Part shown: one piece after another, positions 1-59,856 of the stretch | Layout: every line of letters begins with the position of its first letter | How positions within the stretch are numbered: the stretch's first letter is position 1 | Source of the DNA: a virus | Taxonomy: Duplodnaviria; Caudoviricetes | Direction: 5' to 3' (one strand) | Virus record (IMG/VR): IMGVR_UViG_2706796482_000001 | Span: 1 to 64,000 of that record | Length of the DNA stretch: 64,000 nucleotides | Notes under the pieces: generated by a model | The model's database searches: none | What the model saw: only the letters and a program-made list of their open reading frames with translations | What the model was told of the DNA's origin: nothing | Translations under genes and position numbers: made by a program

Positions 1-112
1 GGCCAGTATGTTTCGAAGCGGAACAAACTATCTGACCAGCACATTCATAGCCCTAACAAGCATTCTGCCCCCGAATCCAAGGCAAATAAGGCTGTCAGGC
101 ATCGATAATTAC

Positions 113-683
113 GCCCCAAAACGTGCCAAAAATGAGCCAAAACACGCTGAAATCAAGGGAAATGCTGCCATTTTGCCCATAATCCTGCCATTTTCCCGCA
201 ATTTTAACAGTCATTCGTAAAAGCACGGCCTTCGGTCGTAAAGCAGCCCCAATCTAGCCCACATTCAGCCCCTGAATCAGCCCAGATGTCCAGAAAATCA
301 GGCATTCATCGTAAATGAGCCCACCATAGCATGTCTAATCGAGCAGTCATGCCTTAGAATGCTAGCCAGAGTGTCGATTCTCCCTATATACACAAGCAAT
401 AAATGATATTGAAATGCCCGGTAGTTTCAAGAGAGGTTCGTAAAGACACTAGATAGATGACACAGCATTATAGGTGTATGTATATAGGGGAGAAGGAGAC
501 CCATCACTACCGGCCTTGAATCTCTCATAGTCTTATTGGCCATGTATATAGCAGCAGACAACACAAAAGCCACCCCGAAGGGTGGCTATTTTTACAACCA
601 AAAATGTTTCCAGAATCCGGGAGTTTTCGCGCCCTTCGTAAAGGGGAATCTCTGGGAAATTTTGGACGCTATCGTAAAGGGGA
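113..683. repeat. Non-coding region with six TCGTAAA direct repeats, phased AGCCC repeats and phased A/T tracts
   Basis: TCGTAAA at about 215, 236, 309, 438, 636, 672; AGCCC at 245, 256, 267, 279; A-tracts at 118, 128, 139. Confidence 0.7.
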
Positions 684-774
684 TTTATTCGGACATGACG
701 GACAAATCGTTGCCGATATTGGTAGTCATCATGTTAGTTAGGCTAAGTAAGGTGTCCGGGCCGGACATTGAAAG

Positions 775-853
775 GTCCCTGGGGAGAGGCCGACCTTCCT
801 CTAATTAAGCCCTTGCCAGAATGACTGATAGGGCCCCCAGGGACACACTTTAT
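775..853 (-). ncRNA. Candidate small structured RNA (three-way junction)
   Basis: 10-bp stem 775-784/835-844 enclosing two hairpins; TTGACA-N18-TAACAT promoter at 860-889; no convincing ORF. Confidence 0.4.
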
Positions 854-896
854 ACTTCTATGTTAGCAAGGGTCTAACACCTTGTCAACATCACTT

Positions 897-1079
897 TCAG
901 TAAGCACTGAACGGAATGACCACCTGCGTCCCATCCTCGTTCCTCAGAGTTGAGTCATACGCACAGACAGGAGTCTCGACATCATCGACGTTGAAGAATC
1001 CGATAGCCTTGCGAGCGAAACAAATCTCGCAGGTCTCGTCTTCATCCTTCTCAAGGTACCTTACCAGTGCTCCATCCAT
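897..1079 (-). CDS. Hypothetical protein (CxxC), probably leaderless
   Basis: 60-aa ORF starting 6 nt after the TAGACT -10 at 1086-1091. Confidence 0.75.
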   Translation of the reverse strand: MDGALVRYLEKDEDETCEICFARKAIGFFNVDDVETPVCAYDSTLRNEDGTQVVIPFSAY

Positions 1080-1085
1080 ATATAG

Positions 1086-1114
1086 AGTCTAGCAGTACAA
1101 GGAGGAGCTGTCTA
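1086..1114 (-). promoter_or_regulatory. sigma70/HrdB-type promoter TAGACA-N17-TAGACT, representative of about 18 array promoters
   Basis: Similar -10 elements at 1496, 2674, 3286, 4426, 4496, 5340, 5839, 6400, 6872, 7116, 7506, 7986, 8405, 8853, 9441, 9877, 10461. Confidence 0.8.
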
Positions 1115-1158
1115 GCCACCGGGCCGATTGTCCGGGTCGGACCCCGAAGGGCCGAGCG

Positions 1159-1467
1159 TCAGAAATCAGATTCACCCATCAGGCTGTAGAACTCCTCCCC
1201 CATTTCGGCAATGGCCTCAGCCATCCAAAGAGTCCGCTCCTTCCGACGAATCTCACGACGGACCAGAGGCCCCTTTTCACCCTCATCGTCCCACTTGGTT
1301 ACGATGTGGCTGTGAGCACTGACACCAGAGTTTTTGGTTTTGTTGTACCCACAGCCACTCTTGGAGCGCCCGGTACCAGGAACAGGAATCCCCTTTTCCT
1401 TCAAAGCAAGCTCACGAGCAATGACCTGGGAGACACAGCCGTTGAAGGTGTCAGCAGGAATCAGCAT
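1159..1467 (-). CDS. Hypothetical protein
   Basis: ATG at 1467 (MLIPAD) with GAAAGAGG RBS, downstream of the promoter at 1496. Confidence 0.75.
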   Translation of the reverse strand: MLIPADTFNGCVSQVIARELALKEKGIPVPGTGRSKSGCGYNKTKNSGVSAHSHIVTKWDDEGEKGPLVRREIRRKERTLWMAEAIAEMGEEFYSLMGESDF

Positions 1468-1601
1468 GGATACCTCTTTCGTTCGTTGTAGATATAGCCT
1501 AGCAGACTGCAAGGGCTCTGTCTAGCCACTGGCCGATTGTCCGCCCCCGCCAGAAATCCCCCAAACCCTTCCGGGCCTAGGGGACTCTGACGTTTCCTGG
1601 A

Positions 1602-2615
1602 TTAGCTGGCCAGGGCCAGAACCGCCTTACGGATGCGGTTCTTCTCAGCGTTGACCACCGGGTCGAAACCGCTGGCAGCGATGAACAGGTTGTCCACGTT
1701 GCCACCACGCGGCATCCGGTACCAGTCGATACGCTCGGTCAGCGCGTTGAGCGCACCCGCAGCCGTACCGGCCAGAGACTGAGTGGTCTTGGGACCGTCG
1801 CCCGTGTCGGTGAAGATGCCCATCAGGATGTCACGCTTTGACTCCCACTTGACCATGGACCCCTTGACATCCTTCTCGGGCTTGGGGTACAGGTCCTGAA
1901 TCAGGGTGTCGAACTTGTCCTTCGTGACGGACACCTCGAACAGAGAGTTCATCTCACGCTCGAACTCATCCGCGTAGGCGAAGGTGATGTTCAGCGCCTC
2001 ACGGGCAGCAGCCATGCGACCCTCGATGGTCTGCGTGTGGCGCATCTTGAACTGTTGCTTCACACCGTTACGGAGTGCGAAGTTCAGCGTGTTCTGACAC
2101 ACGACACGAACCGGGGTGATGCTTGCCTGTACTGCGACAGACCCGTCATGCGACGTGTTGACCAGAAGGTACAGGTTGGTCACGTCGTCGTCACCGACCT
2201 TGATTTCCCGTCCGATGGACAGGGAACCGAAGACGACACGACCGTCACGGATGGAACCAGCGGTCTCCCACGTGCCACCACCCGCGAGGATGCCGTCACC
2301 GAAGCCGAACAGCTCCTCATTCTGGACGACCTTGTACCGCTCGCCCACGGTGGCCAGAACGTCATTCCGGCCGGTGAAGGGGTTGGTACGAACGACCATG
2401 TGAGGCTCAGTCACGAAGTCGTAGTTGTCCGAAATCATCCCGAGGACATCCTTGACCGACTCCAGACGCACATCCCAGCCCGAAAGGTGGGCCAGGTTCA
2501 GCATCTCGGAAGTGGTCAGCTCTCCCTCGAACACGGTTCCGAGGTTGTGCCACGCGGGCTCGCTGCGAGTGGCGAACGCGACCTGACCCTTGGAACCAAT
2601 CTCAAGACCGTGCAT
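1602..2615 (-). CDS. DUF932 family (TIGR03299-like phage/plasmid) protein
   Basis: PAWHNLG, Y..VQN.E.F, ETAGSI..GR.VF, LL.NTSHDGS and TPVRVVCQNTL motifs; GGAGG RBS before MHGLEIG. Confidence 0.85.
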   Translation of the reverse strand: MHGLEIGSKGQVAFATRSEPAWHNLGTVFEGELTTSEMLNLAHLSGWDVRLESVKDVLGMISDNYDFVTEPHMVVRTNPFTGRNDVLATVGERYKVVQNEELFGFGDGILAGGGTWETAGSIRDGRVVFGSLSIGREIKVGDDDVTNLYLLVNTSHDGSVAVQASITPVRVVCQNTLNFALRNGVKQQFKMRHTQTIEGRMAAAREALNITFAYADEFEREMNSLFEVSVTKDKFDTLIQDLYPKPEKDVKGSMVKWESKRDILMGIFTDTGDGPKTTQSLAGTAAGALNALTERIDWYRMPRGGNVDNLFIAASGFDPVVNAEKNRIRKAVLALAS

Positions 2616-2759
2616 TTTTGCCTCCATAGGCAGAGTTGGTTTAGGGCCGGTTTCCCTGCCCTTCGATGTCTCTAGTCTACAGGAAGACAAGGGGTGGTGT
2701 CTACCCATGCTGCGTGTCTATAATGTCCGTTTTGTTCCGGCCGCCCCGGACACACGAAA

Positions 2760-2777
2760 GCCCCTCCGAAGAGGGGC
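2760..2777 (-). terminator. UUCG-tetraloop hairpin, representative of the array terminators
   Basis: GCCCCTC-TTCG-GAGGGGC on the minus strand after the gene at 2799; similar hairpins next to most boxes. Confidence 0.65.
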
Positions 2778-2798
2778 AGTGTGCGAGTCTTGTTAGAC

Positions 2799-3239
2799 TC
2801 AGTAGGCGGCGTCCAGGCAGGAACGCTCCCAGTTCGCCAGGTACATGCCGTCCAGCTTGGCGATGTACTCGTCCACGATGTCCTTCGTGTCCTTGAGACC
2901 GAGACCCGTCTTGTTGCGCAGCTCCTTGATGCACTGAATCTTCTTGTGGCTGCCGACCTCTCGGACGACCTCCTTGACCAGCTCACGCGCGTTGTCCTTG
3001 ACCATCTTCTCGATGCCCCGGAGACGTGCCAGCTCGAAGTTCGTGGGGGCCTCGGTGTCCGTCTTGCCCGCCTCGTAGCCCCGCTTGTAGGCGTCCGCGT
3101 AGGTGTTGTTCTCCACCTGGATGACGCGCTCGGAGTGGAGGTCCATCAGCACCTGCGCGATGAACATCGCCTTCTTGAGGCCGATGCTGACGTTGTTGTT
3201 GTTGAGGACGGCCAGGATGCGAGCGGTGTCGAACGACAT
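2799..3239 (-). CDS. Protein with a C-terminal ribosomal L7/L12 CTD-like domain
   Basis: KIQCIKELRNKTGLGLKDTKDIVD resembles the bL12 motif KIxVIKxVRxxTGLGLKEAKxLVE. Confidence 0.75.
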   Translation of the reverse strand: MSFDTARILAVLNNNNVSIGLKKAMFIAQVLMDLHSERVIQVENNTYADAYKRGYEAGKTDTEAPTNFELARLRGIEKMVKDNARELVKEVVREVGSHKKIQCIKELRNKTGLGLKDTKDIVDEYIAKLDGMYLANWERSCLDAAY

Positions 3240-3373
3240 TTGAGTCTCCGTTTCTTAGGGGGTCCGTCCCCCTTTCGATGTACTAAGTCTACAGGACATG
3301 TGAGGCAGATACAAGCCCGAAGCCAAAGTGTCCGGGCCCGACACGGGCCCCGAAAGTCAAGGGCCCGGTAGGG

Positions 3374-3709
3374 TTAGGGGTTCGTGTGTCCCCTCTTGAG
3401 TAGTATCTGTTCGATAACGAATTTGGAATCCATTACACGATTGAATTCCTCGTCAGACCGACTTTCCTTTCTGCCTGCCCATGCATTGAACAGGCTGATA
3501 GCGAACTGAAAGAACGCGTCCTGTACAGGCTCAGGGTAGGTAGAAACGAGATAGGCGAATGCATGGAAGTCGAATGAACGCTTATCGAATTCATCGACCA
3601 GCTTATTCGCCAGACGCTCATAGGATGTCGGTCGTGGATTTACGAGTCTCGCACCCTCATACATGTCAGGTACGATTAGGCTTGTTTGTTTGAAGGGACT
3701 ACGCGCCAC
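3374..3709 (-). CDS. Hypothetical protein
   Basis: GTG start with GGAGAGG RBS, overlapping the upstream stop. Confidence 0.65.
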   Translation of the reverse strand: MARSPFKQTSLIVPDMYEGARLVNPRPTSYERLANKLVDEFDKRSFDFHAFAYLVSTYPEPVQDAFFQFAISLFNAWAGRKESRSDEEFNRVMDSKFVIEQILLKRGHTNP

Positions 3710-3866
3710 CCTCTCCCCCAAAGTCCTGAGTTGTGCCGTAGCCGTCTGATACGCTCACAGACACGCCCAGCACCTTTGCAATGAACTCAGCCGTAGCTGT
3801 TGCAAAGGGCCAGGCGCTGTCGTGTGCGTCATCATCAGGCGTGTCGATTTCGATGATGACTGACAT
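3699..3866 (-). CDS. Hypothetical protein (55 aa, MSVIIEIDTP...)
   Basis: Translated manually; fills the gap between co-oriented genes. Confidence 0.6.
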   Translation of the reverse strand: MSVIIEIDTPDDDAHDSAWPFATATAEFIAKVLGVSVSVSDGYGTTQDFGGEGGA

Positions 3867-3875
3867 GTCTATATC

Positions 3876-4397
3876 CTATCGGGTACGGACCTCAACGTCC
3901 ATCCCCAGCACCACCGGGCTCCCGCAAGAGCAGTGGGACAGGGAGTAACCGCACTTACACACCTCACGCTCCGAGAGGATGAGACGCTTGCCCCGGTACC
4001 AAGCGGTGTACTCGGTACGGTGCGAACGGGTGGGAGCAGCGTGCGGACGAACGTCCTTACCGGTCACCTTGACGTGAACACCGGGCGCAGCGGGCTTGAC
4101 TTCCGGGTTCGCCTTACGGTAGGCGTCCAGAACCTCAGCCGACAGGCGGCCACGGGTGTTGACGGTCATGCCAACCGAAGCGGCCCACGCTCGCACGGTC
4201 TTGGCATCGAACTGACCAGCCTTGGGAGCGGCCTTGACAGCCGCACGCTTGACCGGAGCGGCAGCGTCAGAGAAGACCATGCCCTTGCCCTCGGCCTCAG
4301 CGATGGCAGCGTAAGCCGCAGCGCTCATCCGACCACGGGCATCCTTGGCCAGGCCCAGAGAGACAGCGTACGCGCGACGGGTCATGTTCTCGGTCAT
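3876..4397 (-). CDS. Lsr2-like DNA-binding protein with two RGR motifs and a Cys-rich C-terminus
   Basis: VRAWAASVGMTVNTRGRLSAEVLDAY is an Lsr2 C-terminal domain; second copy RAYAVSLGLAKDARGRMSAAAYAA. Confidence 0.85.
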   Translation of the reverse strand: MTENMTRRAYAVSLGLAKDARGRMSAAAYAAIAEAEGKGMVFSDAAAPVKRAAVKAAPKAGQFDAKTVRAWAASVGMTVNTRGRLSAEVLDAYRKANPEVKPAAPGVHVKVTGKDVRPHAAPTRSHRTEYTAWYRGKRLILSEREVCKCGYSLSHCSCGSPVVLGMDVEVRTR

Positions 4398-4577
4398 TTG
4401 GGGTTCCTTCCCTCGGTGTGTACTCAGTCTATCGGATTGAAGGCGGAGAGGCAAGCCCCGGTGCAGAGGTTGGTTTCCCTCCCCTTCATGTCTTTAGTCT
4501 ACAGGACGTAAGCCATCTGTGTCTACACCTAAATGTCCGATTTGCCCGTTGTCCGCCCCGGCCCGAAGGCCCTAGCG

Positions 4578-5312
4578 TCAAGCCTTTCGACGCTTAGGAA
4601 CCTTGGACGCGAAACGAATGTCAGCCTTACCAAAGATGCAAAGGCCACATGTCACACATGCGCCACCATCCTTAGTGATAAGGGGAATGCGCTTGGCATT
4701 CTCAGGGCAGATAGCGCCAGGCTTACCAGTTTCGGCAAGCATGAATTCCTTACCCTGTTCGTGTGTTTCTGCCAGATAGGCCAGACGAACAAAGGGGTAA
4801 ATCTCCTGAGTGCCCAACGCAGCCTCTTTGTTCTCACTGTCTACACTCAGATAAACAGAGAGATTGGAGACATTTTCCAGATACGCCACGAACCCAAAGG
4901 AACGTGTGTAAATCCAGAATTGCACATCAGGGAATGCCTTGCACGTTTCCGCAAGGGCATACGCATAGTCAGAGGAAAAGATATCCCCATCTGCGTGCCA
5001 GCGGAATACCTTACTGACGTTGTGCTTTTCGCACTCATTGACGAATTCGGCAATCATGTCAGTGAGCATCGAAATCATCTCACTGATTGTTGCCTTACGC
5101 ATCAATTCCCAATTGTGCAGAGCAAGGTCTCGGAATGCCGGATATTGCTTTTCCAGCTTACCGGCATAGCAGACGGTCTCACACACACCGGTCGCACCAG
5201 GGCAGGAATACGCCTTACCACTGGGCAGGGAGAATGCGTTTTTGATGAGAGAGGCAGTGCCAGCACCGTTTGCACGATTGGCAGTCTTACGGTCATGCGA
5301 GCGCTTGAGCAT
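4578..5312 (-). CDS. GP88-like protein, putative Fe-S or radical-SAM-related
   Basis: FSLPSG..CPGATGVCETVCYA and FRWHADGDIF motifs; C-terminal CxxCxxC. Confidence 0.65.
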   Translation of the reverse strand: MLKRSHDRKTANRANGAGTASLIKNAFSLPSGKAYSCPGATGVCETVCYAGKLEKQYPAFRDLALHNWELMRKATISEMISMLTDMIAEFVNECEKHNVSKVFRWHADGDIFSSDYAYALAETCKAFPDVQFWIYTRSFGFVAYLENVSNLSVYLSVDSENKEAALGTQEIYPFVRLAYLAETHEQGKEFMLAETGKPGAICPENAKRIPLITKDGGACVTCGLCIFGKADIRFASKVPKRRKA

Positions 5313-5423
5313 GGCAGTCCTTCCGTTTGACGTAAGTCGAGTCTATCAGAACTAGGCTACGTAAACAACCCCTCAAAATGTCCTATATGTCTGTCCGGGG
5401 CGGACGCCCCGAAGGGCTAGCCG

Positions 5424-5537
5424 TTAATGATTCTCAGGATGACAACAATTCTTGCCATCACAGTCACAGGGCATGTCATGTGCTCCGAAATCACAGCACA
5501 AACACAATTCCTCGTCATTGATTTCATCAGGCTGCAT
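5424..5537 (-). CDS. Small Cys-rich protein (37 aa)
   Basis: MQPDEINDEELCLCCDFGAHDMPCDCDGKNCCHPENH with GGAGGAG RBS. Confidence 0.6.
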   Translation of the reverse strand: MQPDEINDEELCLCCDFGAHDMPCDCDGKNCCHPENH

Positions 5538-5832
5538 TACGCTCCTCCGAGCTGTAGGGCAATTCCGTGTTACGAACAACAGTGCCAAGAGAGACAGCGT
5601 TGATGGTCTTGTGACCAAGAATCCAAGCCATAACCACACGGTGCTGACCATTGTACACGGTGCCATTGTGAAAGTTGATAGGCATTTGAATTCCGTCCCT
5701 TTCACAGGACTCAATGAATTCATCGCTCATCTCAAAGAAAAGCTGAGTGAAGAGGTCCATGGTGCTCTGTCCGTCCTCGCGGTCTGCGAAGTCGGCACCG
5801 GCAACAATCTTGGCTACACTCAGCGTCTTCAT
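5527..5832 (-). CDS. ParB/Srx N-terminal-like domain protein, leaderless
   Basis: GIQMPI...NGQHRV motif; ATG 6 nt after the -10. Confidence 0.7.
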   Translation of the reverse strand: MKTLSVAKIVAGADFADREDGQSTMDLFTQLFFEMSDEFIESCERDGIQMPINFHNGTVYNGQHRVVMAWILGHKTINAVSLGTVVRNTELPYSSEERNAA

Positions 5833-5921
5833 GCTATGAGTCTAACAGAGTCAGCAGTCATGCACAACCCCTTTTTGAAAGTGTCCGGGACGGCCAAAGG
5901 GCCCCCGAAGGGGCCCGGTGG

Positions 5922-6062
5922 TCAGAGGAACATCGAGACAAGGGCGAGACCGACGATGCCACCCATCACGAAAGGCATGACGAGGTTTTCCATCAGGTCG
6001 CTCTTGATGTTGATGTAATGCGTGTAGATGTAGAAGTGAAGCTGCATGAGGAAGTACGTCAT
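5922..6062 (-). CDS. Small membrane protein (46 aa)
   Basis: Manual translation; hydrophobic C-terminus VMPFVMGGIVGLALVSMFL; GGAG RBS. Confidence 0.55.
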   Translation of the reverse strand: MTYFLMQLHFYIYTHYINIKSDLMENLVMPFVMGGIVGLALVSMFL

Positions 6063-6070
6063 TACCACTC

Positions 6071-6373
6071 CTAGAAGAGTTCGGGACCAGATTCACCAAG
6101 GTCATCCATCCAGTCCTCGGTGAATTCGATGAATTCCACATTCAACAGCCATGCGATAAGAACTCGGTGATGGCCATTGAAGACGGTGTTCGAATCCGTC
6201 ATGTAGAGAATAGGGTCGAGAATGCCCTTTGAACAAGATTCGGTGAACTCAGGGTTTCCCTCAAAGAGGTCATCGAACTTGCGCTCAAACATCTCCCAAG
6301 TAGAGACGCCCCATGCCTCAGCATCATTGAAGATAGCCGACTCAATCAGCTTCGCAACAGATACCTTGGCCAT
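6071..6373 (-). CDS. ParB/Srx N-terminal-like domain protein, paralog of 5527-5832
   Basis: GILDPI...NGHHRV motif; AAGGAGG RBS. Confidence 0.7.
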   Translation of the reverse strand: MAKVSVAKLIESAIFNDAEAWGVSTWEMFERKFDDLFEGNPEFTESCSKGILDPILYMTDSNTVFNGHHRVLIAWLLNVEFIEFTEDWMDDLGESGPELF

Positions 6374-6485
6374 GTCGTCCTCCTTGGCTTGATAGTAAGA
6401 GTCTACCCTAGCCACCGGGCCGATGTCAACACATCTGAAAATTGTCCGGGGCGGCCAAAAGGGGCCCCGAAGGGCCCCTAGTGGA

Positions 6486-6758
6486 TTAGTCCTCGCTGGT
6501 GTCCTTCTGGCTTACCAGCTTCGCACGACCGAGCAGAGAGGCGTCAGCCGCCTTCCACTTCTTGACCGGCTTGCCGACGCGCACGCGGGGGAAGTTCGCC
6601 AGGATGGCACGAGCACGGGTCTCGTCGGCCTCCAGGATGTCGAACCGCTGGTAGGGAAGGATGTTGGACGTGGCACCGAACTCGATGTCCACTCCCTGGA
6701 CAATCATGGCCACACGGAGGGAGAGGGCGTCACGCTGAGGGACGATACCGGCAATCAT
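6486..6758 (-). CDS. Hypothetical protein
   Basis: ORF with AGGAG RBS. Confidence 0.7.
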   Translation of the reverse strand: MIAGIVPQRDALSLRVAMIVQGVDIEFGATSNILPYQRFDILEADETRARAILANFPRVRVGKPVKKWKAADASLLGRAKLVSQKDTSED

Positions 6759-6887
6759 GTGCACTCCTGTGCTAGAAGTAAGCTGGGGTATTCAGTTATC
6801 AGAGACTTTGGCAGGAAGGGAAAAACCTCACGTTGCGAGGCCCTGTGGCCTGTCCCCTTGTGCTTAGCTAGAGTCTAGCAGCCGAAC

Positions 6888-7070
6888 CTAGTTGCAGTCA
6901 ACCAGGTACTCGGGCTCGTCGTCCTCGGAGACGGTCCAGATGTCCGACAGCCAGCCCTTACGGATGACACCGGCCGTCACGAACTTGTGCGGCTCAGCGG
7001 ACTCACGAACCGCGTCCGCGTGCTCCTCTTCGGAGATGATGCTGTAACCCTCGGGAATCTCGAACGTCAT
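6888..7070 (-). CDS. Hypothetical acidic protein
   Basis: 60-aa ORF after the promoter at 7116. Confidence 0.7.
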   Translation of the reverse strand: MTFEIPEGYSIISEEEHADAVRESAEPHKFVTAGVIRKGWLSDIWTVSEDDEPEYLVDCN

Positions 7071-7196
7071 GACTACCCCTTTCGTTGGGAGGCTTCCCTC
7101 CCTTTCGATGTTCTAAGTCTACATGAGCCATCGGACAGAGGCAACACTAGATGTGCACTACATTTTGTCCGGGCCGGACCCCGAAGGGCCAGGCAG

Positions 7197-7478
7197 TCAC
7201 TTACTGATAACAGCCCGAAACTTGCCATTCAAACCACGAACGACATACTTCTGGCCGTTCTTCCAGCTCTCTACCTTGATAGTGATACACGGTTCACCAA
7301 GCCTGTTTTCCATGCGAATTCCATAGTTGACATGACTCTGGAGCTTCAACATGCGAATGTAAGTTCCCTTGTCACGCTTGCGTCGGGCAAGCTTCATGTT
7401 GTATGCGATATCACGTCGAGAGAATTGCAGAGTGCCCTTACGACCAGTAGTACCAGTAACAACAACGTAGTTCGACAA
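7197..7478 (-). CDS. Hypothetical basic protein
   Basis: TTG start with GGAGG RBS; C-terminus resembles 8073-8351. Confidence 0.7.
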   Translation of the reverse strand: MSNYVVVTGTTGRKGTLQFSRRDIAYNMKLARRKRDKGTYIRMLKLQSHVNYGIRMENRLGEPCITIKVESWKNGQKYVVRGLNGKFRAVISK

Positions 7479-7572
7479 GGTTCCTCCGTCGTTTGCGTTG
7501 AAACGACTCTATCATGACTGATGGACTTGTGCAAGATGTCCGGGGCGGACACGCCCCCGAAGGGGCGCACCG

Positions 7573-7728
7573 TCAGTCTCCCATGTCGTCAAGGTGAGCG
7601 TCTGGAGCGGGCTCGAACTCAAGGAAGGTGTCTTCGAAAATCACCATCCATGAGTAACCCTCACGATTGTCCGGGTTGCACTCGCCACGGTGCATATCGC
7701 CCATGGCAGCACCACACCTGATGCACAT
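7573..7728 (-). CDS. Hypothetical protein (51 aa, MCIRCGAAMGD...)
   Basis: Manual translation; TGATG coupling to the upstream gene. Confidence 0.6.
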   Translation of the reverse strand: MCIRCGAAMGDMHRGECNPDNREGYSWMVIFEDTFLEFEPAPDAHLDDMGD

Positions 7729-7940
7729 CAGGTCAGGCTCCAGGGGGCGACGACGAACAGCTCCACGCGGTCCGTGTTGATGCTCAGACGAGCACCGTTC
7801 CTGTCCGTCATGACGAACAGACCCTCACGCCAGACGCTGTCGTTCCATGCCGTCGTCAGCTCATCGACAGACGTGTTTTCCAGGTAGGCCACGAGAGTGT
7901 CCTTGCGACCGTGAAAGTAGAGGCTGACCTTGACACCCAT
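7728..7940 (-). CDS. Hypothetical protein
   Basis: ORF with GAGGAG RBS. Confidence 0.7.
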   Translation of the reverse strand: MGVKVSLYFHGRKDTLVAYLENTSVDELTTAWNDSVWREGLFVMTDRNGARLSINTDRVELFVVAPWSLT

Positions 7941-8072
7941 GACACAACTCCTCTTCCGGGAGAACTTCTCCCTTTCGATGCTCTAACTCTACAGCATGTG
8001 GGGAGCAGATACAACCCCAATTTGAAAGTGTCCGGGCCCGACACGGGCCCCGAAGGGCCCGGTGGGAAGGTG

Positions 8073-8351
8073 TTACTTCTTGGCCTTGGCGCGCTTGTTG
8101 CTGTGGTTGCCGTTCATCAGGGCCGTGAAGTCCAGCATGATGTTCTGCTTGAAGTTGGTCGCTCCGTGGAACTTGCCGTCCTGGTCACGGATGACGATGC
8201 GGACCTCGGTGGAGTCGCTGCCCGGAGTGGTCTTCCAGGTCTCCAGACGGATGCTGTAGACGGACTTGGAGCCCTTGACCTTGAAGCCCTCGGAGATGGT
8301 GACGGAGGAGACGATGTTGTGGTTGACGCCCTTGGCGAGAGAAACGGCCAT
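8073..8351 (-). CDS. Hypothetical protein
   Basis: GAGGAG RBS; strongly GC3-biased codons. Confidence 0.8.
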   Translation of the reverse strand: MAVSLAKGVNHNIVSSVTISEGFKVKGSKSVYSIRLETWKTTPGSDSTEVRIVIRDQDGKFHGATNFKQNIMLDFTALMNGNHSNKRAKAKK

Positions 8352-8496
8352 TTTAAGCTCCTCGGTGTCTGCTAGGGGTTTCTTTCCCCCTTGCTGATAG
8401 CTAAAGTCTACACGACTCCGGAGACAAGTACAAGCCCTGATTTTATGTCCGTTTTATCCGTCCGGGCCGGACAAGGGGCCCGGAGGCCCCAAGTCG

Positions 8497-8823
8497 CTAG
8501 TCTGCCAGGATGGAAGCCAGACGCTCACGCTGTGCACGGTCATGCGCACCGGAACGACTCGCGTACTCCTGGAACTCCGACACGGTGTCGATGGTGAGAT
8601 ATCCGTTTTCGTCCAGCTTGGCCACACGCACGGTGTAACGCCTGTCGTAGTCGTCGTTCCTCTCCGAGGAGACAAAGAACATCTTGTCTCCGTCGATGTT
8701 GCTGTAGCAGATGTCCGAAATGCGCGACTTCCACCAACGCATGGTGTCAGCCGAAAAGAAGTGGTTGCCCTGGTCCTTGGCGATGGCCTTGGCGTCCTCG
8801 ATGCTGAACAGAACCTTACGCAT
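8497..8823 (-). CDS. Hypothetical protein
   Basis: Start MRKVLFS with GAGGA RBS. Confidence 0.75.
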   Translation of the reverse strand: MRKVLFSIEDAKAIAKDQGNHFFSADTMRWWKSRISDICYSNIDGDKMFFVSSERNDDYDRRYTVRVAKLDENGYLTIDTVSEFQEYASRSGAHDRAQRERLASILAD

Positions 8824-8938
8824 TTGGGGTTCCTCTCCCTCGGTGTAAGACGAGTCTATCAGAGACAAGGGACATGCACAACACCTACCGGGCATTTTTG
8901 AAAGTGTCCGGCCCCGACAGGGCCCGAAGGCCCCTTTG

Positions 8939-9262
8939 TCAGGTGAGCTGAGCCAGAAGAGAACTGATTTCCTGGCGGAGTTCGGACTGAGGCCGATAGC
9001 CTCGCTCGTTCTTCAACTCACGCTCGAAATAGGCACGAAGTTCGGTCTTGTTGTACGGACCGTGTGCCTCGTCGGTGTAGTTGATGTTCTCGAAGGGCGA
9101 CGGGCAGGAGCAACCGGAGTCACTGGCCACGTAGTACCGTCCTCGGGTCTCCTTCCACACCTGAGTGATGTTGAACTGATAGGGCTCGTCGTCCCAGTCG
9201 AATCCTCCGACATAGGCCAGGTCATCCAGCTTCGTGCGCTCGGGCTTCGAAAGGTTGGTCAT
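8939..9262 (-). CDS. Hypothetical protein
   Basis: GAGGAGG RBS; DSGCSCPSP motif. Confidence 0.75.
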   Translation of the reverse strand: MTNLSKPERTKLDDLAYVGGFDWDDEPYQFNITQVWKETRGRYYVASDSGCSCPSPFENINYTDEAHGPYNKTELRAYFERELKNERGYRPQSELRQEISSLLAQLT

Positions 9263-9271
9263 TACGCCTCC

Positions 9272-9415
9272 TCAGATGTCTTTACGCTGAACCTTACCAC
9301 ACTTGGAGCACTGGCGCACCTGAATCAGCGCCTTCCAGGTACCGAGTCTGGGGAACAGAGGGGAATCGAACGTTCCCACCATCTGCTTCCAGTCGGACCA
9401 CTTGTGGAAACACAT
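9272..9415 (-). CDS. Small Zn-binding-like protein (47 aa)
   Basis: MCFHKW...CSKCG with GGAGG RBS. Confidence 0.6.
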   Translation of the reverse strand: MCFHKWSDWKQMVGTFDSPLFPRLGTWKALIQVRQCSKCGKVQRKDI

Positions 9416-9538
9416 CCTGTCCTCCGTTTTCGTTAGCTCTAGTCTACAGGACGGATTTTTGAGTCGCAACCCCAAAGTCTGGTTTTTTAGTCGCAGATTT
9501 TTAGTCCGGGGCGGACAGGGCCCCGAAGGGCCCAAATC

Positions 9539-9853
9539 CTACTCCCACGGACGGTAGTCGCTCCAGTCGGCACCCTCACGGTTTTCGATGAGGATTTCCA
9601 CCGTGTCGCCCAGACGGTGATTCACGCTGTACAGACTCCTGTGAGAGCCCTGATAGCGCCTTTGCGCCTTGGCCCACGTGACCAGCTTCTCAGCCTGTTT
9701 GGCCGAACGGCAGGGCCATGCTTCGATGTTCTCTCCGTAGTTGAACCACCATCCACCCTCTTCCGACCCTCCACAGGCTCGGTCGATAAGGTAGATGTTC
9801 ACCCAGTGCTTATTACGACGACGCTGACCCATACGGAGCGACTTCTTCGCCAT
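9539..9853 (-). CDS. Hypothetical protein
   Basis: AAGGAGG RBS; promoter at 9877. Confidence 0.75.
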   Translation of the reverse strand: MAKKSLRMGQRRRNKHWVNIYLIDRACGGSEEGGWWFNYGENIEAWPCRSAKQAEKLVTWAKAQRRYQGSHRSLYSVNHRLGDTVEILIENREGADWSDYRPWE

Positions 9854-9966
9854 TTTTCCTCCTTGGTGATGACCTAAGTCTAACAGAAGCCTAGGACATC
9901 TACAACATGTCTACCAGGATATTTTCTCATTTAGGCATGTCCGGGTCGGACAAAAAATTCGCCTAC

Positions 9967-10027
9967 AAATTCACCCCTCTTTTCTAAGGAATTCTAGGCG
10001 AAAATCCTTGAAAAGAGGGGTGAATTT
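9967..10027. repeat. Perfect 18-bp inverted repeat (long hairpin)
   Basis: AAATTCACCCCTCTTTTC 9967-9984 pairs with GAAAAGAGGGGTGAATTT 10010-10027. Confidence 0.85.
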
Positions 10028-10044
10028 TTTCTCCAATTATTTTT

Positions 10045-10269
10045 CTAAGGCTGAATGGCGACTTTTTCGTCTTTTCCTGCCTCACAAAGGCAGTATTTCG
10101 AATGTGTCGCCTCGATTGCAGTAAAACCGCTTTCCTTGTAGCGAGAAAGGAGATTCGCCAAAAGGGAGGAATTGAAAACAGGGGTTTGGCTTTTCAACCC
10201 CTCCCTTTCCAGCAAAAGGGACATGCTGTGGAATCGAACTGTAGGAACAGCCTTTTTCCGAAACATCAT
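10045..10269 (-). CDS. Hypothetical protein (doubtful)
   Basis: 74-aa ORF, but overlaps a large inverted repeat and A/T tracts. Confidence 0.35.
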   Translation of the reverse strand: MMFRKKAVPTVRFHSMSLLLEREGLKSQTPVFNSSLLANLLSRYKESGFTAIEATHSKYCLCEAGKDEKVAIQP

Positions 10270-10284
10270 ATCCCCTTAGTGCGC

Positions 10285-10428
10285 TTAGGCCAGTTCGGAC
10301 ATGTGCGGGTAGGCGTCCCAGTCGAAGCCGTCCACACGGTCCGCATCCTGCACCTCACTGACCGGAACGGTCATGGTGGTGAAGACGCCCGCGTCACGAG
10401 CCTGCTCAAGAAGGTCACGAAGGTCCAT
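10285..10428 (-). CDS. Hypothetical protein (47 aa, MDLRDLLEQ...)
   Basis: Manual translation; GAGG RBS; promoter at 10461. Confidence 0.6.
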   Translation of the reverse strand: MDLRDLLEQARDAGVFTTMTVPVSEVQDADRVDGFDWDAYPHMSELA

Positions 10429-10534
10429 GGTGTGTACTTCCTCTCGCTTGGTGTAGTACCAGTCTACACAAGGGGTAGGGCAGATGCAAGCCCTAGATGT
10501 TCCGGGAATTTTTCGTGCCTATCGTACACGCGCG

Positions 10535-10692
10535 GGGGATATGTGGGGTATGTACGTAAGGCCCCGTAATAGGGCCTATATGTGGTATGTACCCTATGTA
10601 CCATAGGCCCTATATGTACCAGTATGGGTATGTATGTACTGTATGTACCCCTATATCCCATATGTACCCAATGTCCGTTTTGCCCCATATGT
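10535..10692. repeat. Low-complexity TATGTAC(C) repeat tract
   Basis: About 10 imperfect TATGT/TATGTAC units between divergent genes. Confidence 0.75.
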
Positions 10693-10812
10693 CGTCCGGC
10701 CCGGACAGGTCACGGTTAGGTAAAGAAACCAAGATTCTTGCTGAATCAGGGTTGCATGGGGGTCCGGGGCGGGTAGTATGTAGGCATAGCCACTACGGAC
10801 CAGGGAGACGAA

Positions 10813-11250
10813 ATGAACGCCACCACCGCCCACCACTGCAAGTACAACAACGAGACTGCCGTTAACGCCCGTATCCGTAGGCAGGTGCTCGCTACGGTGC
10901 TGTACCTGGCTAGCCTTACGGGTGACAGTGACGGTGCCACGTGGGCCAACTGTGTGGGGTGTGGGGAGCGTGCCCACGTGGGCGGTACCCCTAGGGCTAT
11001 GGACACGTTCAACCTGGGGCACGTGCTGGCAGACGCTGAGGGTGGGATGTACTGCCCTTGCAACCTGTTGCCCCTGTGCAGGCAGTGTAACGCTGACATG
11101 GGTAAGGAGACCCTTACCGATGTGCTCATTCCCACTTACGACAATCGGGAACTCTGGGACGGTAAGCTCATGGCCGACCCTGGCACCGTGGCCGCTAAGC
11201 CTGAAAGCAACCGAGGACGTGCCCGCTGGAACGTCCCTGCGACCGTCTGA
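10813..11250 (+). CDS. HNH endonuclease
   Basis: CVGCG...LGHVLADAEGG...NLLPLCRQCN. Confidence 0.8.
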   Translation: MNATTAHHCKYNNETAVNARIRRQVLATVLYLASLTGDSDGATWANCVGCGERAHVGGTPRAMDTFNLGHVLADAEGGMYCPCNLLPLCRQCNADMGKETLTDVLIPTYDNRELWDGKLMADPGTVAAKPESNRGRARWNVPATV

Positions 11251-11264
11251 GACGCTTTGAATGT

Positions 11265-11292
11265 GCCCCCTAGGGTAGTTTGCCTAGGGGGC
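11265..11292 (+). terminator. Hairpin after the HNH gene
   Basis: GCCCCCTAGG...CCTAGGGGGC. Confidence 0.6.
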
Positions 11293-11481
11293 TATTTCAT
11301 GCCCGCAGACGGGCCCTCAGCCCTTTTGAAAACGGTTTTCAAGGGCCGTGGAACCTTCCCCGGAACCTTCTTGCGACAAGATGTCAAGGGTTATGGGCGC
11401 ACTATCTGAATTGTTACAAAGGTATGCGAAGCATGTATCATACATCACAAAAAATTACTAACATTTCAGAATGCTTTTATG

Positions 11482-11709
11482 TTACTCTTCGGTAGTGTCC
11501 GGCTCGGACAATTCGTCTCCCATATCAAATGACGGAGCAGGCCCGAAAATCTTGCCCAATTGGTGTCCTCTGAAAATGACTTCTGCCTCTTGTGGATTTA
11601 CTCCACGCGCAATGCAGGTCAGCATATCGTAGATACGCATGAGCATGATGGTATTGACGACAGACGAAGTGTCTTCATCGAATACGTCATTCTCTATTTC
11701 ATCACTCAT
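11482..11709 (-). CDS. Hypothetical protein
   Basis: ATGA overlap with thyX. Confidence 0.7.
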   Translation of the reverse strand: MSDEIENDVFDEDTSSVVNTIMLMRIYDMLTCIARGVNPQEAEVIFRGHQLGKIFGPAPSFDMGDELSEPDTTEE

Positions 11710-13403: not shown

Positions 13404-13757
13404 GTCACTAGGATGTCACATGTCCTGGGACATTGTCAAGACGTGACACCGCCTTGTTCACCGTATTTACGGGAATGTCCTGTCCCTTGATGTCACAAAT
13501 CTGCTTGTGCAATTCTGTCCTGTCCGTGACACCCTTGGCCCATAGGTCTCTGACCAGGGCGGACACTGATTTGTCCTTGTCCTTGTCATTTGTCACCGGG
13601 ACAGTTTTTGTCACCTTGTCTGTCCTTGGGACATTGTCCGTGACAGGAATGTCCGGTGACGTGACAGAAAATGTCTTGTCCTTCTTTGTCACCTTGTCCG
13701 GCTTTTTGTCCTTTGTCTTCTTTCGCTCCAGAGGTTGTCCCGTGACATTGGTGACAG
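13340..13757. repeat. Dense TGTC(C/A) and (G/T)GACA motif cluster inside coding sequence
   Basis: About 40 TGTC/GACA occurrences in about 420 bp, versus about 3 expected by chance. Confidence 0.85.
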
Positions 13758-59836: not shown

Positions 59837-59856
59837 AGCCCCTCTTCGGAGGGGCT
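59837..59856 (+). terminator. Intrinsic terminator
   Basis: AGCCCCTC-TTCG-GAGGGGCT. Confidence 0.75.

Follow-up and report, generated by a model that had tools for sequence, protein, structure and literature searches.

Palindromic boxes and mobile gene cassettes in the terminal repeat of Streptomyces phage Jay2Jay: a PeSL-like array with a possible HNH endonuclease site

Repeated promoter/stem-loop (PeSL) cassettes shuffle genes in T4-type phages, and T5 and SPO1 carry early blocks devoted to host takeover; the initial annotation of the DNA analyzed here drew both comparisons, and we judge them apt. Two further systems are relevant: stoperators, which evolve in concert with their repressor (PMC6550527, PMC9283540), and the small phage HNH enzymes, which are site- and strand-specific nickases with sites of 3-7 bp, e.g., CG^GT and CSG^GT (PMC3592412, PMC4027164). 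The window (the whole 64,000-nucleotide stretch analyzed) starts at the left end of the 133,531-bp genome of Streptomyces phage Jay2Jay (cluster BE1), the phage covered in PMC5764925. Bases 1-11,438 are the left copy of an 11,438-bp direct terminal repeat (DTR), identical to bases 122094-133531 with 0 mismatches, and this copy contains an entire array in which 17 boxes on the minus strand delimit 16 cassettes of one to three ORFs each (24 ORFs in total). About 17 cassettes had been annotated; the number of boxes stands, but that of cassettes is 16. We are highly confident in the array and its modules as described below, and no mention of the box or cassette elements was found in the searchable literature. 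The array would be the early (host-takeover type) gene region of this lytic cluster BE1 phage, with early timing suggested by the architecture and by analogy with T5 and SPO1.

With a 15-bp consensus of TGTCCG-N3-CGGACA and up to two mismatches tolerated, the window contains 20 boxes against 2.3 expected (largest shuffle, 7), four of them exact against 0.00 expected. Seventeen of the 20 are intergenic and span 753 to 10707, which bears out the 17 copies of a 15-bp palindrome first reported. The other three lie at 10359 (coding, in an unremarkable context), at 13551 (within a GACA-rich membrane-protein gene) and at 11496. Across the whole 133.5-kb genome, matches with at most one mismatch all fall in the two DTR copies, with the sole exception of the last of these (11496-11510, minus strand), which lies 58 bp beyond the repeat, where the first unique gene has its final codons, and has lineage-appropriate counterparts in Karimacvirus and Tomas. 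The box is thus DTR-confined and not at background frequency, in keeping with the annotated lack of full boxes in the structural and replication regions. Among the Jay2Jay boxes, the right arm (CGGACA) is far better conserved than the left.

At most junctions, the minus strand presents the annotated order of a GC hairpin (its loop usually UUCG), the box and a promoter, here of the host-sigma (HrdB) type. A conserved leader comes next, and the four elements form composite modules of ∼110-130 bp that separate the 16 cassettes. A U[U/C]CG-tetraloop hairpin precedes 10 of the 17 boxes by local folding and 12 by eye, while the boxes at 3329 and 1538 are preceded by GC hairpins of other kinds; stem and box are 0-7 nt apart, unless the stem runs into the left arm of the box. 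The promoter motif (TTGNNN or TAGACA, a spacing of 17-18 nt, then TAGA[C/G]T or TAGGCT) follows 16/17 boxes and occurs 17-18 times on the DTR minus strand (0.17 in shuffles), with none found on the DTR plus strand. The layout is less uniform than first described, given that the head box (10693) has no hairpin and lies ∼200 nt from its own promoter, the tail box (753) lacks a downstream promoter, and two promoters in the array have no box (-10 at 6872 and 4426). These modules would both start and insulate early transcription. Hairpin-promoter modules without a box occur elsewhere in the genome (59840, 95093, 104458, and 112048), and because of these and of how rarely the box folds in RNA, we infer that it is a DNA-level extra belonging to neither terminator nor promoter.

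Alternatively, the box could act in RNA, as a second hairpin completing a tandem terminator, as 3′-end protection, or as a processing mark. Its usual position directly after the terminator hairpin, its constant orientation, which places a C-rich centre on the transcribed strand, its complementary arms, and arm-arm pairing in 8/13 Bmoc and 8/16 Coruscant predicted folds are in line with such a role, but the arms pair in just 3/17 intergenic Jay2Jay boxes (4/18 folded matches) and in 0/8 Wofford folds, and a lone box hairpin has a folding energy of only -1.6 to -7 kcal/mol. Moreover, mismatches in imperfect boxes are G.G, C.C, and G.A and not G.U wobble, a U-tract is absent, canonical terminators show no enrichment, the genome's other terminators come without a box, and the head box has no upstream transcript on its strand. 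No Rfam family match for the box was found, and we regard an RNA role as highly improbable.

Read from head to tail on the minus strand, the array begins with box 1 (TGTCCGGGCCGGACG; 10693-10707), which is 203 nt from the first -35 and whose frame is conserved in all lineages. GTACAT-word repeats (10550-10662) and cassette 1 (together 9953-10692; -35 at 10484-10489, -10 at 10461-10466; ORFs 10285-10428 and 10045-10269) lead to box 2 (TGTCCGACCCGGACA; 9938-9952; exact), followed by cassette 2 (9518-9937; -10 at 9877-9882), whose 104-aa ORF (9539-9853) is found in 20/20 phages. Box 3 (TGTCCGCCCCGGACT; 9503-9517) heads cassette 3 (8920-9502; -10 at 9441-9446; ORFs 9272-9415 and 8939-9262, the latter DUF7574) and box 4 (TGTCGGGGCCGGACA; 8905-8919) heads cassette 4 (8474-8904; -10 at 8853-8858; ORF 8497-8823, DUF7447), both patchy in relatives. 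Box 5 (TGTCCGGCCCGGACG; 8459-8473), with an extra half-site at 8445, precedes cassette 5 (8044-8458; -10 at 8405-8410; ORF 8073-8351). Cassette 6 (7552-8028; -10 at 7986-7991; ORFs 7728-7940 and 7573-7728) varies in presence among three sub-lineages, the junctions lying within the box; the boxes on either side of it, box 6 (TGTCGGGCCCGGACA; 8029-8043) and the exact box 7 (TGTCCGCCCCGGACA; 7537-7551; 2 nt before the -35), are the upstream and downstream partners of a box-to-box deletion in Evy and Targaryen. The ORF of cassette 7 (7181-7536; -10 at 7506-7511; ORF 7197-7478) is restricted to Jay2Jay, Evy, and Targaryen, apart from a 47% copy in Coruscant. The left arm of box 8 (GGTCCGGCCCGGACA; 7166-7180) overlaps the hairpin stem, and cassette 8 (6458-7165; -10 at 7116-7121; ORF 6888-7070) has a second promoter without a box (-10 at 6872-6877) ahead of ORF 6486-6758.

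Box 9 (TGGCCGCCCCGGACA; 6443-6457) is a hybrid with a Bmoc-type left arm, and cassette 9 (5897-6442; -10 at 6400-6405) encodes ORFs 6071-6373 (annotated as ParB-like in relatives) and 5922-6068. Box 10 (TGGCCGTCCCGGACA; 5882-5896) is followed by cassette 10 (5407-5881; -10 at 5839-5844; ORFs 5527-5832, ParB-like, and 5424-5537), in which ORF 5527-5832 looks leaderless, its ATG being 6 nt past the -10. Box 11 (CGTCCGCCCCGGACA; 5392-5406), with GACA words after it, heads cassette 11 (4565-5391; -10 at 5340-5345; ORF 4578-5312, GP88 family, in 20/20 phages). Box 12 (GGGCCGGGGCGGACA; 4550-4564) is turned the other way, with a G-rich centre, and other lineages keep this orientation at the orthologous site; cassette 12 (3344-4549; -10 at 4496-4501 and a second at 4426-4431) contains ORFs 3876-4397 (Lsr2-like), 3699-3866, and 3374-3709, each in 20/20 phages. 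Box 13 (again TGTCGGGCCCGGACA; 3329-3343) heads cassette 13 (2753-3328; -10 at 3286-3291), whose ORF 2799-3239 (L7/L12 C-terminal-domain-like) is duplicated in relatives, and box 14 (TGTCCGGGGCGGCCG; 2738-2752), with a half-site at 2723, heads cassette 14 (1553-2737; -10 at 2674-2679; ORF 1602-2615, DUF932, in 20/20 phages). Two patchy cassettes complete the array: cassette 15 (1144-1537; -10, TAGGCT, at 1496-1501; ORF 1159-1467) after box 15 (TGGCGGGGGCGGACA; 1538-1552; degenerate left arm), and cassette 16 (768-1128; -10 at 1086-1091; ORF 897-1079, apparently leaderless) after box 16 (GGTCCGACCCGGACA; 1129-1143). Box 17, the tail box (TGTCCGGCCCGGACA; 753-767), is exact.

We compared the array with ∼25 relatives (ORF-content counts refer to 20 phages). 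Each lineage has a palindrome of its own, in the same slot and confined to that phage's repeats, and the two arms change jointly: GTCCG-N3-CGGAC in most Samistivirus, GGCCG-CCC-CGGCC in Bmoc, Anedea, and Riptide, GCCG-CCC-CGGC in Karimacvirus, GACCG-GCC-CGGTC in Tomas, GGCGCC-C-GGCGCC in Coruscant, and TGCGCC-C-GGCGCA in Mandalore. At no fewer than 12 positions, the box is swapped while orthologous promoters and leaders stay. From this we infer a symmetric recognition site with lineage-specific arms.

The extra half-sites that had been annotated are real (CGGACAT at 2723, 4533, 8445, and 10671; GGACAT at 5379), and these ATGTCC(G) words are an element separate from the box and are conserved across every lineage, the BK phage Wakanda included. 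The Jay2Jay box arms contain GGACA, and the GACA-rich gene at 13408-14277 (14 GGACA and 7 TGACA words) encodes a DUF2637-like, membrane-anchored protein that might use the boxes as docking sites to tether the repeat to the membrane. This is barely plausible: Bmoc and Anedea share a near-identical protein tail and GACA words, yet their box is without GACA, as are those of Karimacvirus, Tomas, and Coruscant, and the protein would be better suited to the half-sites.

Three clean cassette indels separate close relatives, and in each the crossover falls either within the box or on its right-hand edge. Jay2Jay 7565-8022 is missing from Evy and Targaryen, the switch falling within CCCGGACA, and box junctions equivalent to this one are seen in Mildred21/Daubenski and in Bmoc/Anedea (here within a Bmoc-type box). 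Hairpin-box-promoter-leader modules flank at least six ORF replacements, and ORF content is patchy across the 20 phages. In these alignments, the modules are the places where cassettes are gained, lost, and exchanged between related phages, and the boxes themselves are quite likely crossover points. The recombination site that the initial annotation had offered as one option thus survives in part: gain, loss, and replacement occur at boxes and modules, but no reordering of cassettes was seen among relatives, and many homology breaks lie away from boxes, either at the edges of genes or within paralogous ones. No sign of a dedicated recombinase was seen.

Such crossovers could also arise if the box had no reader and were a GC-rich repeated microhomology whose copies gene conversion between modules keeps alike in each genome, with a new variant (e.g., one imported with the HNH cassette discussed below) spreading by drift or biased conversion. 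Box-box crossovers do occur, even the loops are the same throughout a genome (Bmoc, Coruscant), copies share one orientation, the Bmoc head box came in with the HNH gene, and the phage has genes for RecA-like and RuvC-like recombination proteins. Six lineages nevertheless retain palindromes with both arms compensated, and drift and conversion can spread variants but cannot create symmetry; adjacent hairpin stems and spacers are not homogenized, and hairpin-promoter modules outside the repeat never gained a box. This explanation is improbable, and the comparisons suggest instead that a phage protein probably reads the box at the DNA level.

That protein might be a symmetric regulator, encoded by the phage, for which the box is the operator, switching the whole early array off (or on) jointly, with recombination as a by-product of the repeated sequence. 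The palindrome (arms of 5-6 bp, a 3-bp centre) with jointly changing arms suits this role, the box occurs only at promoters of the repeat while other HrdB-type promoters lack it, and stoperators offer a known parallel. The box centre also lies on whole helical turns from the -35 in Samistivirus (Jay2Jay R=0.80, p=7e-5, statistics inflated because the modules are paralogous copies), which is more in line with a transcription factor than with a nuclease site; in Coruscant and Mandalore, the distance is a constant 29.5 nt. However, Karimacvirus and Tomas show no helical phasing (distance classes of 20.5 and 27.5-28.5 nt), and box distance is tight to the hairpin (0-7 nt) and loose to the promoter (2-203 nt), the head and tail boxes being remote from a promoter or without one. 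No HTH protein was found among the repeat-encoded proteins, annotated Bmoc HTH genes are not clearly discordant, and identical loops (CCC in 11/13 Bmoc boxes) with fixed orientation are unexpected from symmetric-dimer selection alone. We consider an operator, the other option in the initial annotation, unlikely.

The likeliest reader, though a tentative candidate, is the HNH endonuclease (145 aa; 10813-11250, plus strand) encoded at the array head and transcribed away from the array. It belongs to phrog_7426 (1e-95), has a weak Pfam HNH_5/HNH match below the curated cut-off and weak fold matches, and carries two invariant CxxC pairs and H70/N84/N93. Its tree tracks box type, even against the genome backbone: Bmoc and Anedea group with Karimacvirus (99/96), in agreement with their common box core, a grouping rejected by DUF932, ThyX, Lsr2, and GP88 (p = 2e-78 to 1e-3). 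Among 26 left-end Bmoc genes, only HNH is closer to Karimacvirus; across the genome as a whole, the Karimacvirus reference is the closer one for a few more, namely a tail protein, two small ORFs, and a methyltransferase. Riptide has a Bmoc-type HNH and a Bmoc-type box, matching prediction, the Peebs group combines a long HNH branch with 1-2 perfect boxes (6-10 in other GTCCG-type phages), and neither an HNH of this kind nor the box was found in sister cluster BK. The link is drawn from one backbone-discordant lineage and from between-genus differences confounded with phylogeny. The outer arm pair is not the same in Coruscant as in Mandalore, yet their HNH enzymes are 87% identical, and the Bmoc HNH was acquired along with the adjoining head box and upstream segment, so that linkage and spread of the box by gene conversion could mimic a functional link. 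The many off-box homology breaks also count against the favored reading as a whole.

Under the HNH reading, the endonuclease at the array head would recognize its lineage's own box, and its nicks or breaks there would both turn boxes into crossover points and keep all copies within a genome alike. Overall, we offer, as a view held at slightly under even confidence, that the Jay2Jay repeat carries PeSL-like mobile regulatory cassettes in an SPO1/T5-style early region, with the box as the putative site of the HNH enzyme. Like the PeSL cassettes of T4-type phages, its modules are sites of gene gain, loss, and exchange between related phages, and the repeat region resembles SPO1 and T5 in the style of its presumed early block.

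The phage genome is 133,531 bp long and the window begins at its left physical end, the first bases of which (1–11,438) recur at the right end, at an offset of 122,093, with 0 mismatches. This Streptomyces phage, of cluster BE1, belongs to the Stanwilliamsviridae, a family of siphoviruses; its nearest records are Evy and Targaryen (∼96% identity), and about 95 BE-type records exist. The genome announcement for the BE cluster describes direct repeats of ∼11 kb with 20–25 ORFs, likens them to those of T5 and SPO1, and mentions no promoters, terminators, or palindromes (PMC5764925); the Coruscant paper and the MindFlayer and MulchMansion helper papers are likewise silent on these elements. Variability in BE genomes is greatest in the direct terminal repeats, and the phages are reported to be without an integrase (PMC10690885). 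Products encoded in the repeat include DUF932, L7/L12-CTD-like, Lsr2-like, GP88, DUF7447, and DUF7574 proteins, an HNH endonuclease, and ParB-like proteins (a label taken from the annotation of relatives). The Lsr2-like, L7/L12-CTD-like, ParB-like, GP88, and DUF932 content is compatible with, and no more than suggestive of, host takeover. The 146-aa early protein encoded at 2799–3239 matches the ribosomal L7/L12 C-terminal domain (Pfam, 9.6e-8); its gene has two paralogous copies in relatives, and recombination between the two paralogs accounts for one of the differences between Jay2Jay (the phage of this window) and Evy.

The early genes of this repeat form a modular array on the minus strand, a structure that we consider solid. 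The palindrome TGTCCG-N3-CGGACA (the box) occurs four times exactly in the window (0.00 expected) and 20 times with up to two mismatches (2.3 expected), and 17 of these 20 matches are intergenic and on the minus strand, from 753 to 10707. The initial annotation had proposed a genome-wide motif scan; with up to one mismatch, all copies lie inside the two copies of the repeat except one at 11496, 58 bp outside. That annotation had also described about 17 cassettes, each headed by a box, of which the 17 boxes stand, but they bound 16 cassettes, carrying 24 ORFs of 37–337 aa. The order that it gave on the minus strand (hairpin, box, promoter) is seen at most junctions, where a stop codon is followed by a GC hairpin, the box, a promoter, and a conserved leader, tagaNcatcgaaaggGAG. 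A GC hairpin is present upstream at 14 of the 17 junctions, the end of its stem lying 0–7 nt from the box or overlapping it; U[U/C]CG tetraloop hairpins number 10 in the local fold and 12 by eye, with two other GC hairpins in addition. Within the repeat, the minus strand has 17–18 copies of the promoter motif (TTGNNN or TAGACA, 17–18 nt of spacing, and TAGA[C/G]T), compared with 0.17 in shuffles, and the plus strand has none. Two ORFs appear leaderless, with starts 6 nt past a TAGACT −10 element (1079–1091 and 5832–5844). The right arm of the box, CGGACA, is much better kept than the left arm, and occurs 24 times on the same strand of the repeat (3.3 expected) while being under-represented elsewhere. 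At the ends of the array, the head box (10693) has no gene upstream on its strand, and the tail box (753) is without a promoter.

Other repeated words occur near the ends of the repeat. In the 750-bp non-coding stretch with which the left end begins, six TTTACGA words occur on the minus strand (215–672), often as CCCCTTTACGA; these represent half of the minus-strand copies in the genome, and one copy lies near the Coruscant end too. A 113-bp stretch (10550–10662) lying between the head box and the first early promoter contains seven closely spaced GTACAT words (GGTACATA-type repeats), 7 of the genome's 33 copies on that strand; similar repeats are found in all BE lineages, and they may serve as iterons or as a signal for packaging or for an injection stop. 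A palindrome kept across lineages, TTGAAAAC-GGTTTTCAA (11320–11350), lies downstream of the HNH gene, past the GCCCCCTAGGG hairpin of that gene. The inner repeat boundary (11438) is spanned by a word of ∼30 bp, TAGTAATTTTTTGTGATGTATGATACATGC (11425–11470, minus strand), which is kept in Samistivirus, Karimacvirus, and Tomas, and probably marks the site where the genome end is cut or copied. The box outside the repeat (11496–11510) has perfect arms and falls within the final codons of the first gene beyond the boundary; its position gives the HNH gene a box on both flanks. At the corresponding site, Karimacvirus and Tomas each have a box with arms of their own type, followed by AAGATCATCTATT.

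If the box acted as RNA, as a hairpin or tandem terminator, its arms should pair in transcripts. Predicted folds of transcript 3′ regions, covering every junction in five lineages, pair the arms at 3 of 17 intergenic boxes in Jay2Jay (4 of the 18 matches folded), 5 of 18 in Mildred21, 0 of 8 in Wofford, 8 of 13 in Bmoc, and 8 of 16 in Coruscant, and the box hairpin by itself reaches −1.6 to −7 kcal/mol. The mismatches in imperfect boxes are G.G, C.C, and G.A rather than wobble pairs, canonical U-tract terminators are not enriched (13 terminator-like sites compared with 9.4 expected) and are few at junctions, and a search of Rfam returned no relevant family match. With arms that seldom pair, mismatches of this kind, and no U-tracts, we rate the RNA reading low. 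The same genome provides an internal control, in that UUCG hairpins run straight into a −35 element without a box at 59840, 95093, 104458, and 112048. The fold results, these boxless modules, and the contexts of the head and tail boxes together indicate that the box is an extra, repeat-specific element acting as DNA, and there is good support for the view that a phage protein reads it as a DNA site. Elsewhere in the genome, 19 more HrdB-type promoter motifs occur on the plus strand (59859–115929), mostly at 83–116 kb among tRNA and small genes; some are directly behind a UUCG hairpin, and none of the 19 has a box.

In other lineages the same slot is occupied by another palindrome, each limited to the terminal repeats of its phage: GGCCG-CCC-CGGCC in Bmoc, Anedea, and Riptide, (A)GCCG-CCC-CGGC(T) in six Karimacvirus phages, GACCG-GCC-CGGTC in Tomas, GGCGCC-C-GGCGCC in Coruscant, and TGCGCC-C-GGCGCA in Mandalore. 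Four box types retain CCG-N3-CGG, and the outer arm positions differ, always in both arms jointly. Copies share a single orientation (0 forward and 22 reverse in Bmoc), apart from one box upstream of the GP88 gene, the opposite orientation of which is kept across lineages. When orthologous modules of Bmoc and Mildred21 are compared, promoters and leaders are kept, whereas 12 or more positions have a replaced box; the box thus evolves in concert within each genome, under a constraint that preserves its symmetry. Neither a box nor an HNH of this type was found in the BK cluster; the repeated word ATCTCGGGAGA of the BK phage Wakanda, considered as an analog of the box, turned out to be a leader/Shine-Dalgarno element. 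The modules of Coruscantvirus (Coruscant and Mandalore) have a second inverted repeat, TAGATG-N7-CATCTA, at a fixed distance past each box and abutting the −35 element, with TAAGCT as the −10 element; this repeat is absent from Samistivirus and looks like a separate, operator-like element.

Comparison of close relatives shows the box to be a crossover point. Three clean indels distinguish close pairs, and at each the flanking alignments overlap by 16–33 bp at the hairpin and box. Jay2Jay 7565–8022 is absent from Evy and Targaryen, whose hybrid module has the upstream-type box and changes to the downstream flank just past CCCGGACA; Mildred21 7056–7546 is absent from Daubenski, with the junction at the right box edge; and Bmoc 7350–7817 is absent from Anedea, with the junction inside the Bmoc-type box. 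One and the same two-gene cassette is concerned in all three. Additionally, at least six ORF replacements end ∼70–77 nt past the box, at the start codon, with homology resuming 15–30 nt ahead of the next box, at the hairpin, such that the entire module is retained. Other homology breaks fall at gene edges or within paralogous genes. The earlier suggestion that cassettes are gained, lost, and reordered, with breakpoints at the boxes, is thus borne out for gain, loss, and replacement, and for the position of the three indels and the at least six module-bounded swaps, but not for the remaining breaks; nor was any reordering seen, gene order being collinear in the annotation tables. Across the 20 phages compared, approximately 9–10 of the 24 ORFs are universal or nearly so and approximately 10 are patchy, and one is shared with the distant Coruscant alone. 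The 93-aa cassette ORF at 7197–7478 is limited, among Samistivirus, to Jay2Jay, Evy, and Targaryen; with a 47% copy in Coruscant, it looks like a laterally moved cassette. No recombinase was found among the proteins encoded in the repeat.

The sole candidate found to co-vary with box type is the HNH endonuclease, whose gene (10813–11250, plus strand) lies inside the repeat ∼190 bp from the inner boundary. The 145-aa protein has invariant C47/C50 and C89/C92 (a [CxxC]2 zinc site), as well as invariant H70, N84, and N93; it matches the phrog_7426 HNH at 1e-95, with a Pfam score below the cut-off, and its structure model (pLDDT 75) retrieves only weak HNH-domain matches with Foldseek, of a generic fold from which specificity is not readable. 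Bmoc and Anedea group with Karimacvirus in the HNH tree (99/96), as they do by their common box core, GCCGCCCCGGC. The DUF932 tree places them within Samistivirus beside Mildred21 (100/99), as does the ThyX tree with weaker local support. Samistivirus monophyly is rejected by the HNH data (p-AU 0.028, for a group named after the tree was seen), and a grouping of Bmoc with Karimacvirus is rejected by DUF932 (p = 2e-78), ThyX (2e-7), Lsr2 (1e-5), and GP88 (1e-3). Among 26 left-end Bmoc genes, HNH alone is nearer to Karimacvirus (73% compared with 60%). Riptide, a close kin of Anedea, was picked because its HNH is of the Bmoc type, and its box is of that type too. The Peebs group combines a long HNH branch with 1–2 perfect boxes, compared with 6–10 in other GTCCG-type phages. 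A scan of IMG/VR added three uncultivated lineages, in which the box and HNH pattern is consistent in three of three and discordant in none, and metagenomic HNH homologs are present on long contigs.

From these co-variation patterns, the HNH protein is the best single candidate for the reader of the box, a reading to which we assign somewhat less than an even chance. The link is limited, since it comprises one backbone-discordant event and the remainder is confounded with phylogeny. That event has a live alternative explanation, namely physical linkage between the HNH gene and the head box, followed by spread of the imported box through the array: Bmoc acquired its HNH together with the adjoining head box and an upstream segment. 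Genome-wide, a few other Bmoc genes are also nearer to the Karimacvirus reference (a tail protein, two small ORFs, and a methyltransferase), in a comparison that serves as a rough filter, its reference being Jay2Jay and not the closest relative of Bmoc. The HNH enzymes of Coruscant and Mandalore are 87% identical, although the outer arm pair of the box differs between the two phages. A counterpart of the Bmoc methyltransferase gene (66065–66835 of that genome) occurs in MindFlayer (53%) but not in the phage of this window; like HNH, this gene is among the few genes off the Samistivirus backbone. The terminase lies ∼68–70 kb into the Bmoc genome, with a separate HNH adjacent.

Should the HNH protein read the box, it would nick or cut at the boxes bounding every early cassette, and breaks there would lead to the gain, loss, and swapping of cassettes, while also holding all boxes matched to the resident enzyme. 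The enzyme and the lineage-specific palindromes might then constitute a dedicated cassette-exchange system of a lytic phage, integron-like with a nuclease replacing the integrase, a proposal that we regard as less likely than not. As a variant, HNH could cut the differently typed boxes of co-infecting relatives, a marker exclusion directed against the early region of a rival, which would also account for the joint switching of box and enzyme.

The main rival to a nuclease as the reader is a phage regulator for which the box would be the operator. The box is a multi-copy site with a genome-specific consensus, and a point in favor of this reading is that in Samistivirus its center lies near 10, 21, 31, 41, or 52 nt from the −35 element, a helical phasing (Jay2Jay, R = 0.80, p = 7e-5; Mildred21, R = 0.79; Anedea, R = 0.84) whose p-values overstate independence because the modules are paralogous copies. 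The same distance is fixed at 29.5 nt in Coruscant and Mandalore, and falls into non-helical classes of 20.5 and 27.5–28.5 nt in Karimacvirus and Tomas. Two boxes, those at the head and tail of the array, have no nearby promoter; of the proteins encoded in the repeat, 20 were scanned with Pfam and showed no HTH or RHH domain. A DUF2637-like membrane protein, the gene of which was confirmed to be full of GACA words, was considered as the reader and rejected: Bmoc and Anedea retain the same tail and GACA words with a box that has no GACA, and the protein is therefore not the determinant of the box. The extra half-sites in the initial annotation (2723, 4533, 5379, 8445, and 10671) are present, with others on the plus strand (690 and 762), but belong to an element distinct from the box. 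These AAA(A/T)CGGACAT sites are GACA words, often two to four in a row ∼10 bp apart, located upstream of the DUF932, Lsr2 operon, and GP88 promoters and at both array ends. They are kept in every BE lineage irrespective of box type (relatives listed: genomes L010, L011, L018, L019, and L065) and in the BK phage Wakanda. They match the word enriched in the DUF2637-like gene, whose product may read them. Among host regulators, we know of no site for BldD, AdpA, DasR, GlnR, PhoP, LexA, Rex, or WhiA that fits the box, and a host factor is disfavored because phages of one host carry different boxes. Restriction-site avoidance or enrichment was rejected, as the box types correspond to no common enzyme site.

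How lytic phages renew their small early host-takeover and anti-defense genes is an open question. The chief mechanism described so far is that of the promoter-early stem-loop cassettes (PeSLs) of T4-type phages, for which no counterpart has been reported in actinobacteriophages. In the BE phages, this logic recurs independently, in a group that is large and well sampled (∼95 genomes, from a teaching programme) and has tractable Streptomyces hosts, and with an added element: a short palindrome at every cassette bound, in at least six lineage versions, switched with one nuclease gene, which opens the mechanism to testing. Were the nuclease to prove the reader of the box, the array would be a nuclease-driven cassette system and would readily supply new short-site nicking enzymes; were it a regulator, the lineages would offer natural orthogonal operator/regulator pairs over strong Streptomyces promoters. 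Whichever reader applies, Streptomyces engineering gains candidate parts in the 17–18 compact promoter/hairpin modules, and core early genes can be told from exchangeable ones on the cassette map.

Several known systems share features with the array. Integrons have a row of cassettes with an imperfect palindromic site (attC) at each bound, where gain and loss occur. However, BE phages are reported to be without an integrase, the proteins of the repeat include no recombinase of the IntI tyrosine type that would go with an attI site, and the BE cassettes have their own promoters and much shorter sites, with no folded single-strand substrate indicated. The temperate Streptomyces phage phiC31 has a repressor that binds conserved inverted repeats (CIRs), present in more than 12 copies near early promoters and terminators. 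The BE boxes resemble these as many conserved inverted repeats in a Streptomyces phage; the CIRs differ in belonging to a temperate phage with a known repressor, in sequence, and in not being confined to a terminal repeat. The stoperators of cluster A mycobacteriophages, which are temperate, are asymmetric 13-bp sites for a monomeric immunity repressor, distributed over the whole genome (PMC6550527, PMC9283540). They are likewise many, short, intergenic, oriented with transcription, and genome-specific in consensus, and they co-evolve with a phage-encoded protein, comparable to the co-variation of box type with HNH; unlike them, the BE boxes are palindromic, repeat-confined, and those of a lytic phage. 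Small phage HNH nickases such as N.phiGamma are site- and strand-specific, with sites of 3–7 bp (CG^GT, CSG^GT, AC^CGR) that resemble the box arms CCGGT, CCGGA, and CCGGC (PMC3592412, PMC4027164). The BE protein is similarly a small HNH with a [CxxC]2 zinc site, within the 95–300 aa class, but the nickase genes adjoin terminase/cos whereas the BE gene lies in the repeat and its terminase has another HNH. Sequence and fold similarity to these enzymes is weak, and nicking by the BE protein is a candidate activity.

The host-takeover module of the Bacillus phage SPO1 lies in its terminal redundancy, and the pre-early region of T5 in its terminal repeat (PMC6873191, PMC10531801, PMC5764925). Both have in common with the BE phages a long direct terminal repeat (10–13 kb) packed with many small genes, and the presumed role, early host takeover, would be the same. 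In SPO1 and T5, the promoter/terminator layout consists of short operons with strong host-type promoters. The likeness to T5 and SPO1 put forward in the initial annotation was upheld in the long exact repeat and in the short operons with their own host-type promoters. Their gene content is unrelated to that of the BE repeat and, to our knowledge, no repeated palindromic box around each operon has been described for them.

PeSLs are mobile regulatory cassettes (PMC2839356, PMC4122927). They, too, pair a stem-loop terminator with a strong early promoter for the host sigma factor, a composite that recurs in a hyperplastic region between ORFs of small size that are often orphans, with the insertion, deletion, and replacement junctions of close relatives inside the elements and without a known dedicated recombinase; the annotation's PeSL analogy held for promoter, stem-loop, hyperplastic region, and junctions alike. 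The BE array differs in its location in a terminal repeat, in the extra box co-varying with an HNH endonuclease, and in virus family, host, sigma consensus, and sequences, with no indication of common descent. Since the phage group, host, and sequences are unrelated, PeSLs are an analog of the BE array and not its homolog. By this analogy, the array appears to work like PeSL cassettes set within an SPO1/T5-style terminal-repeat early region.
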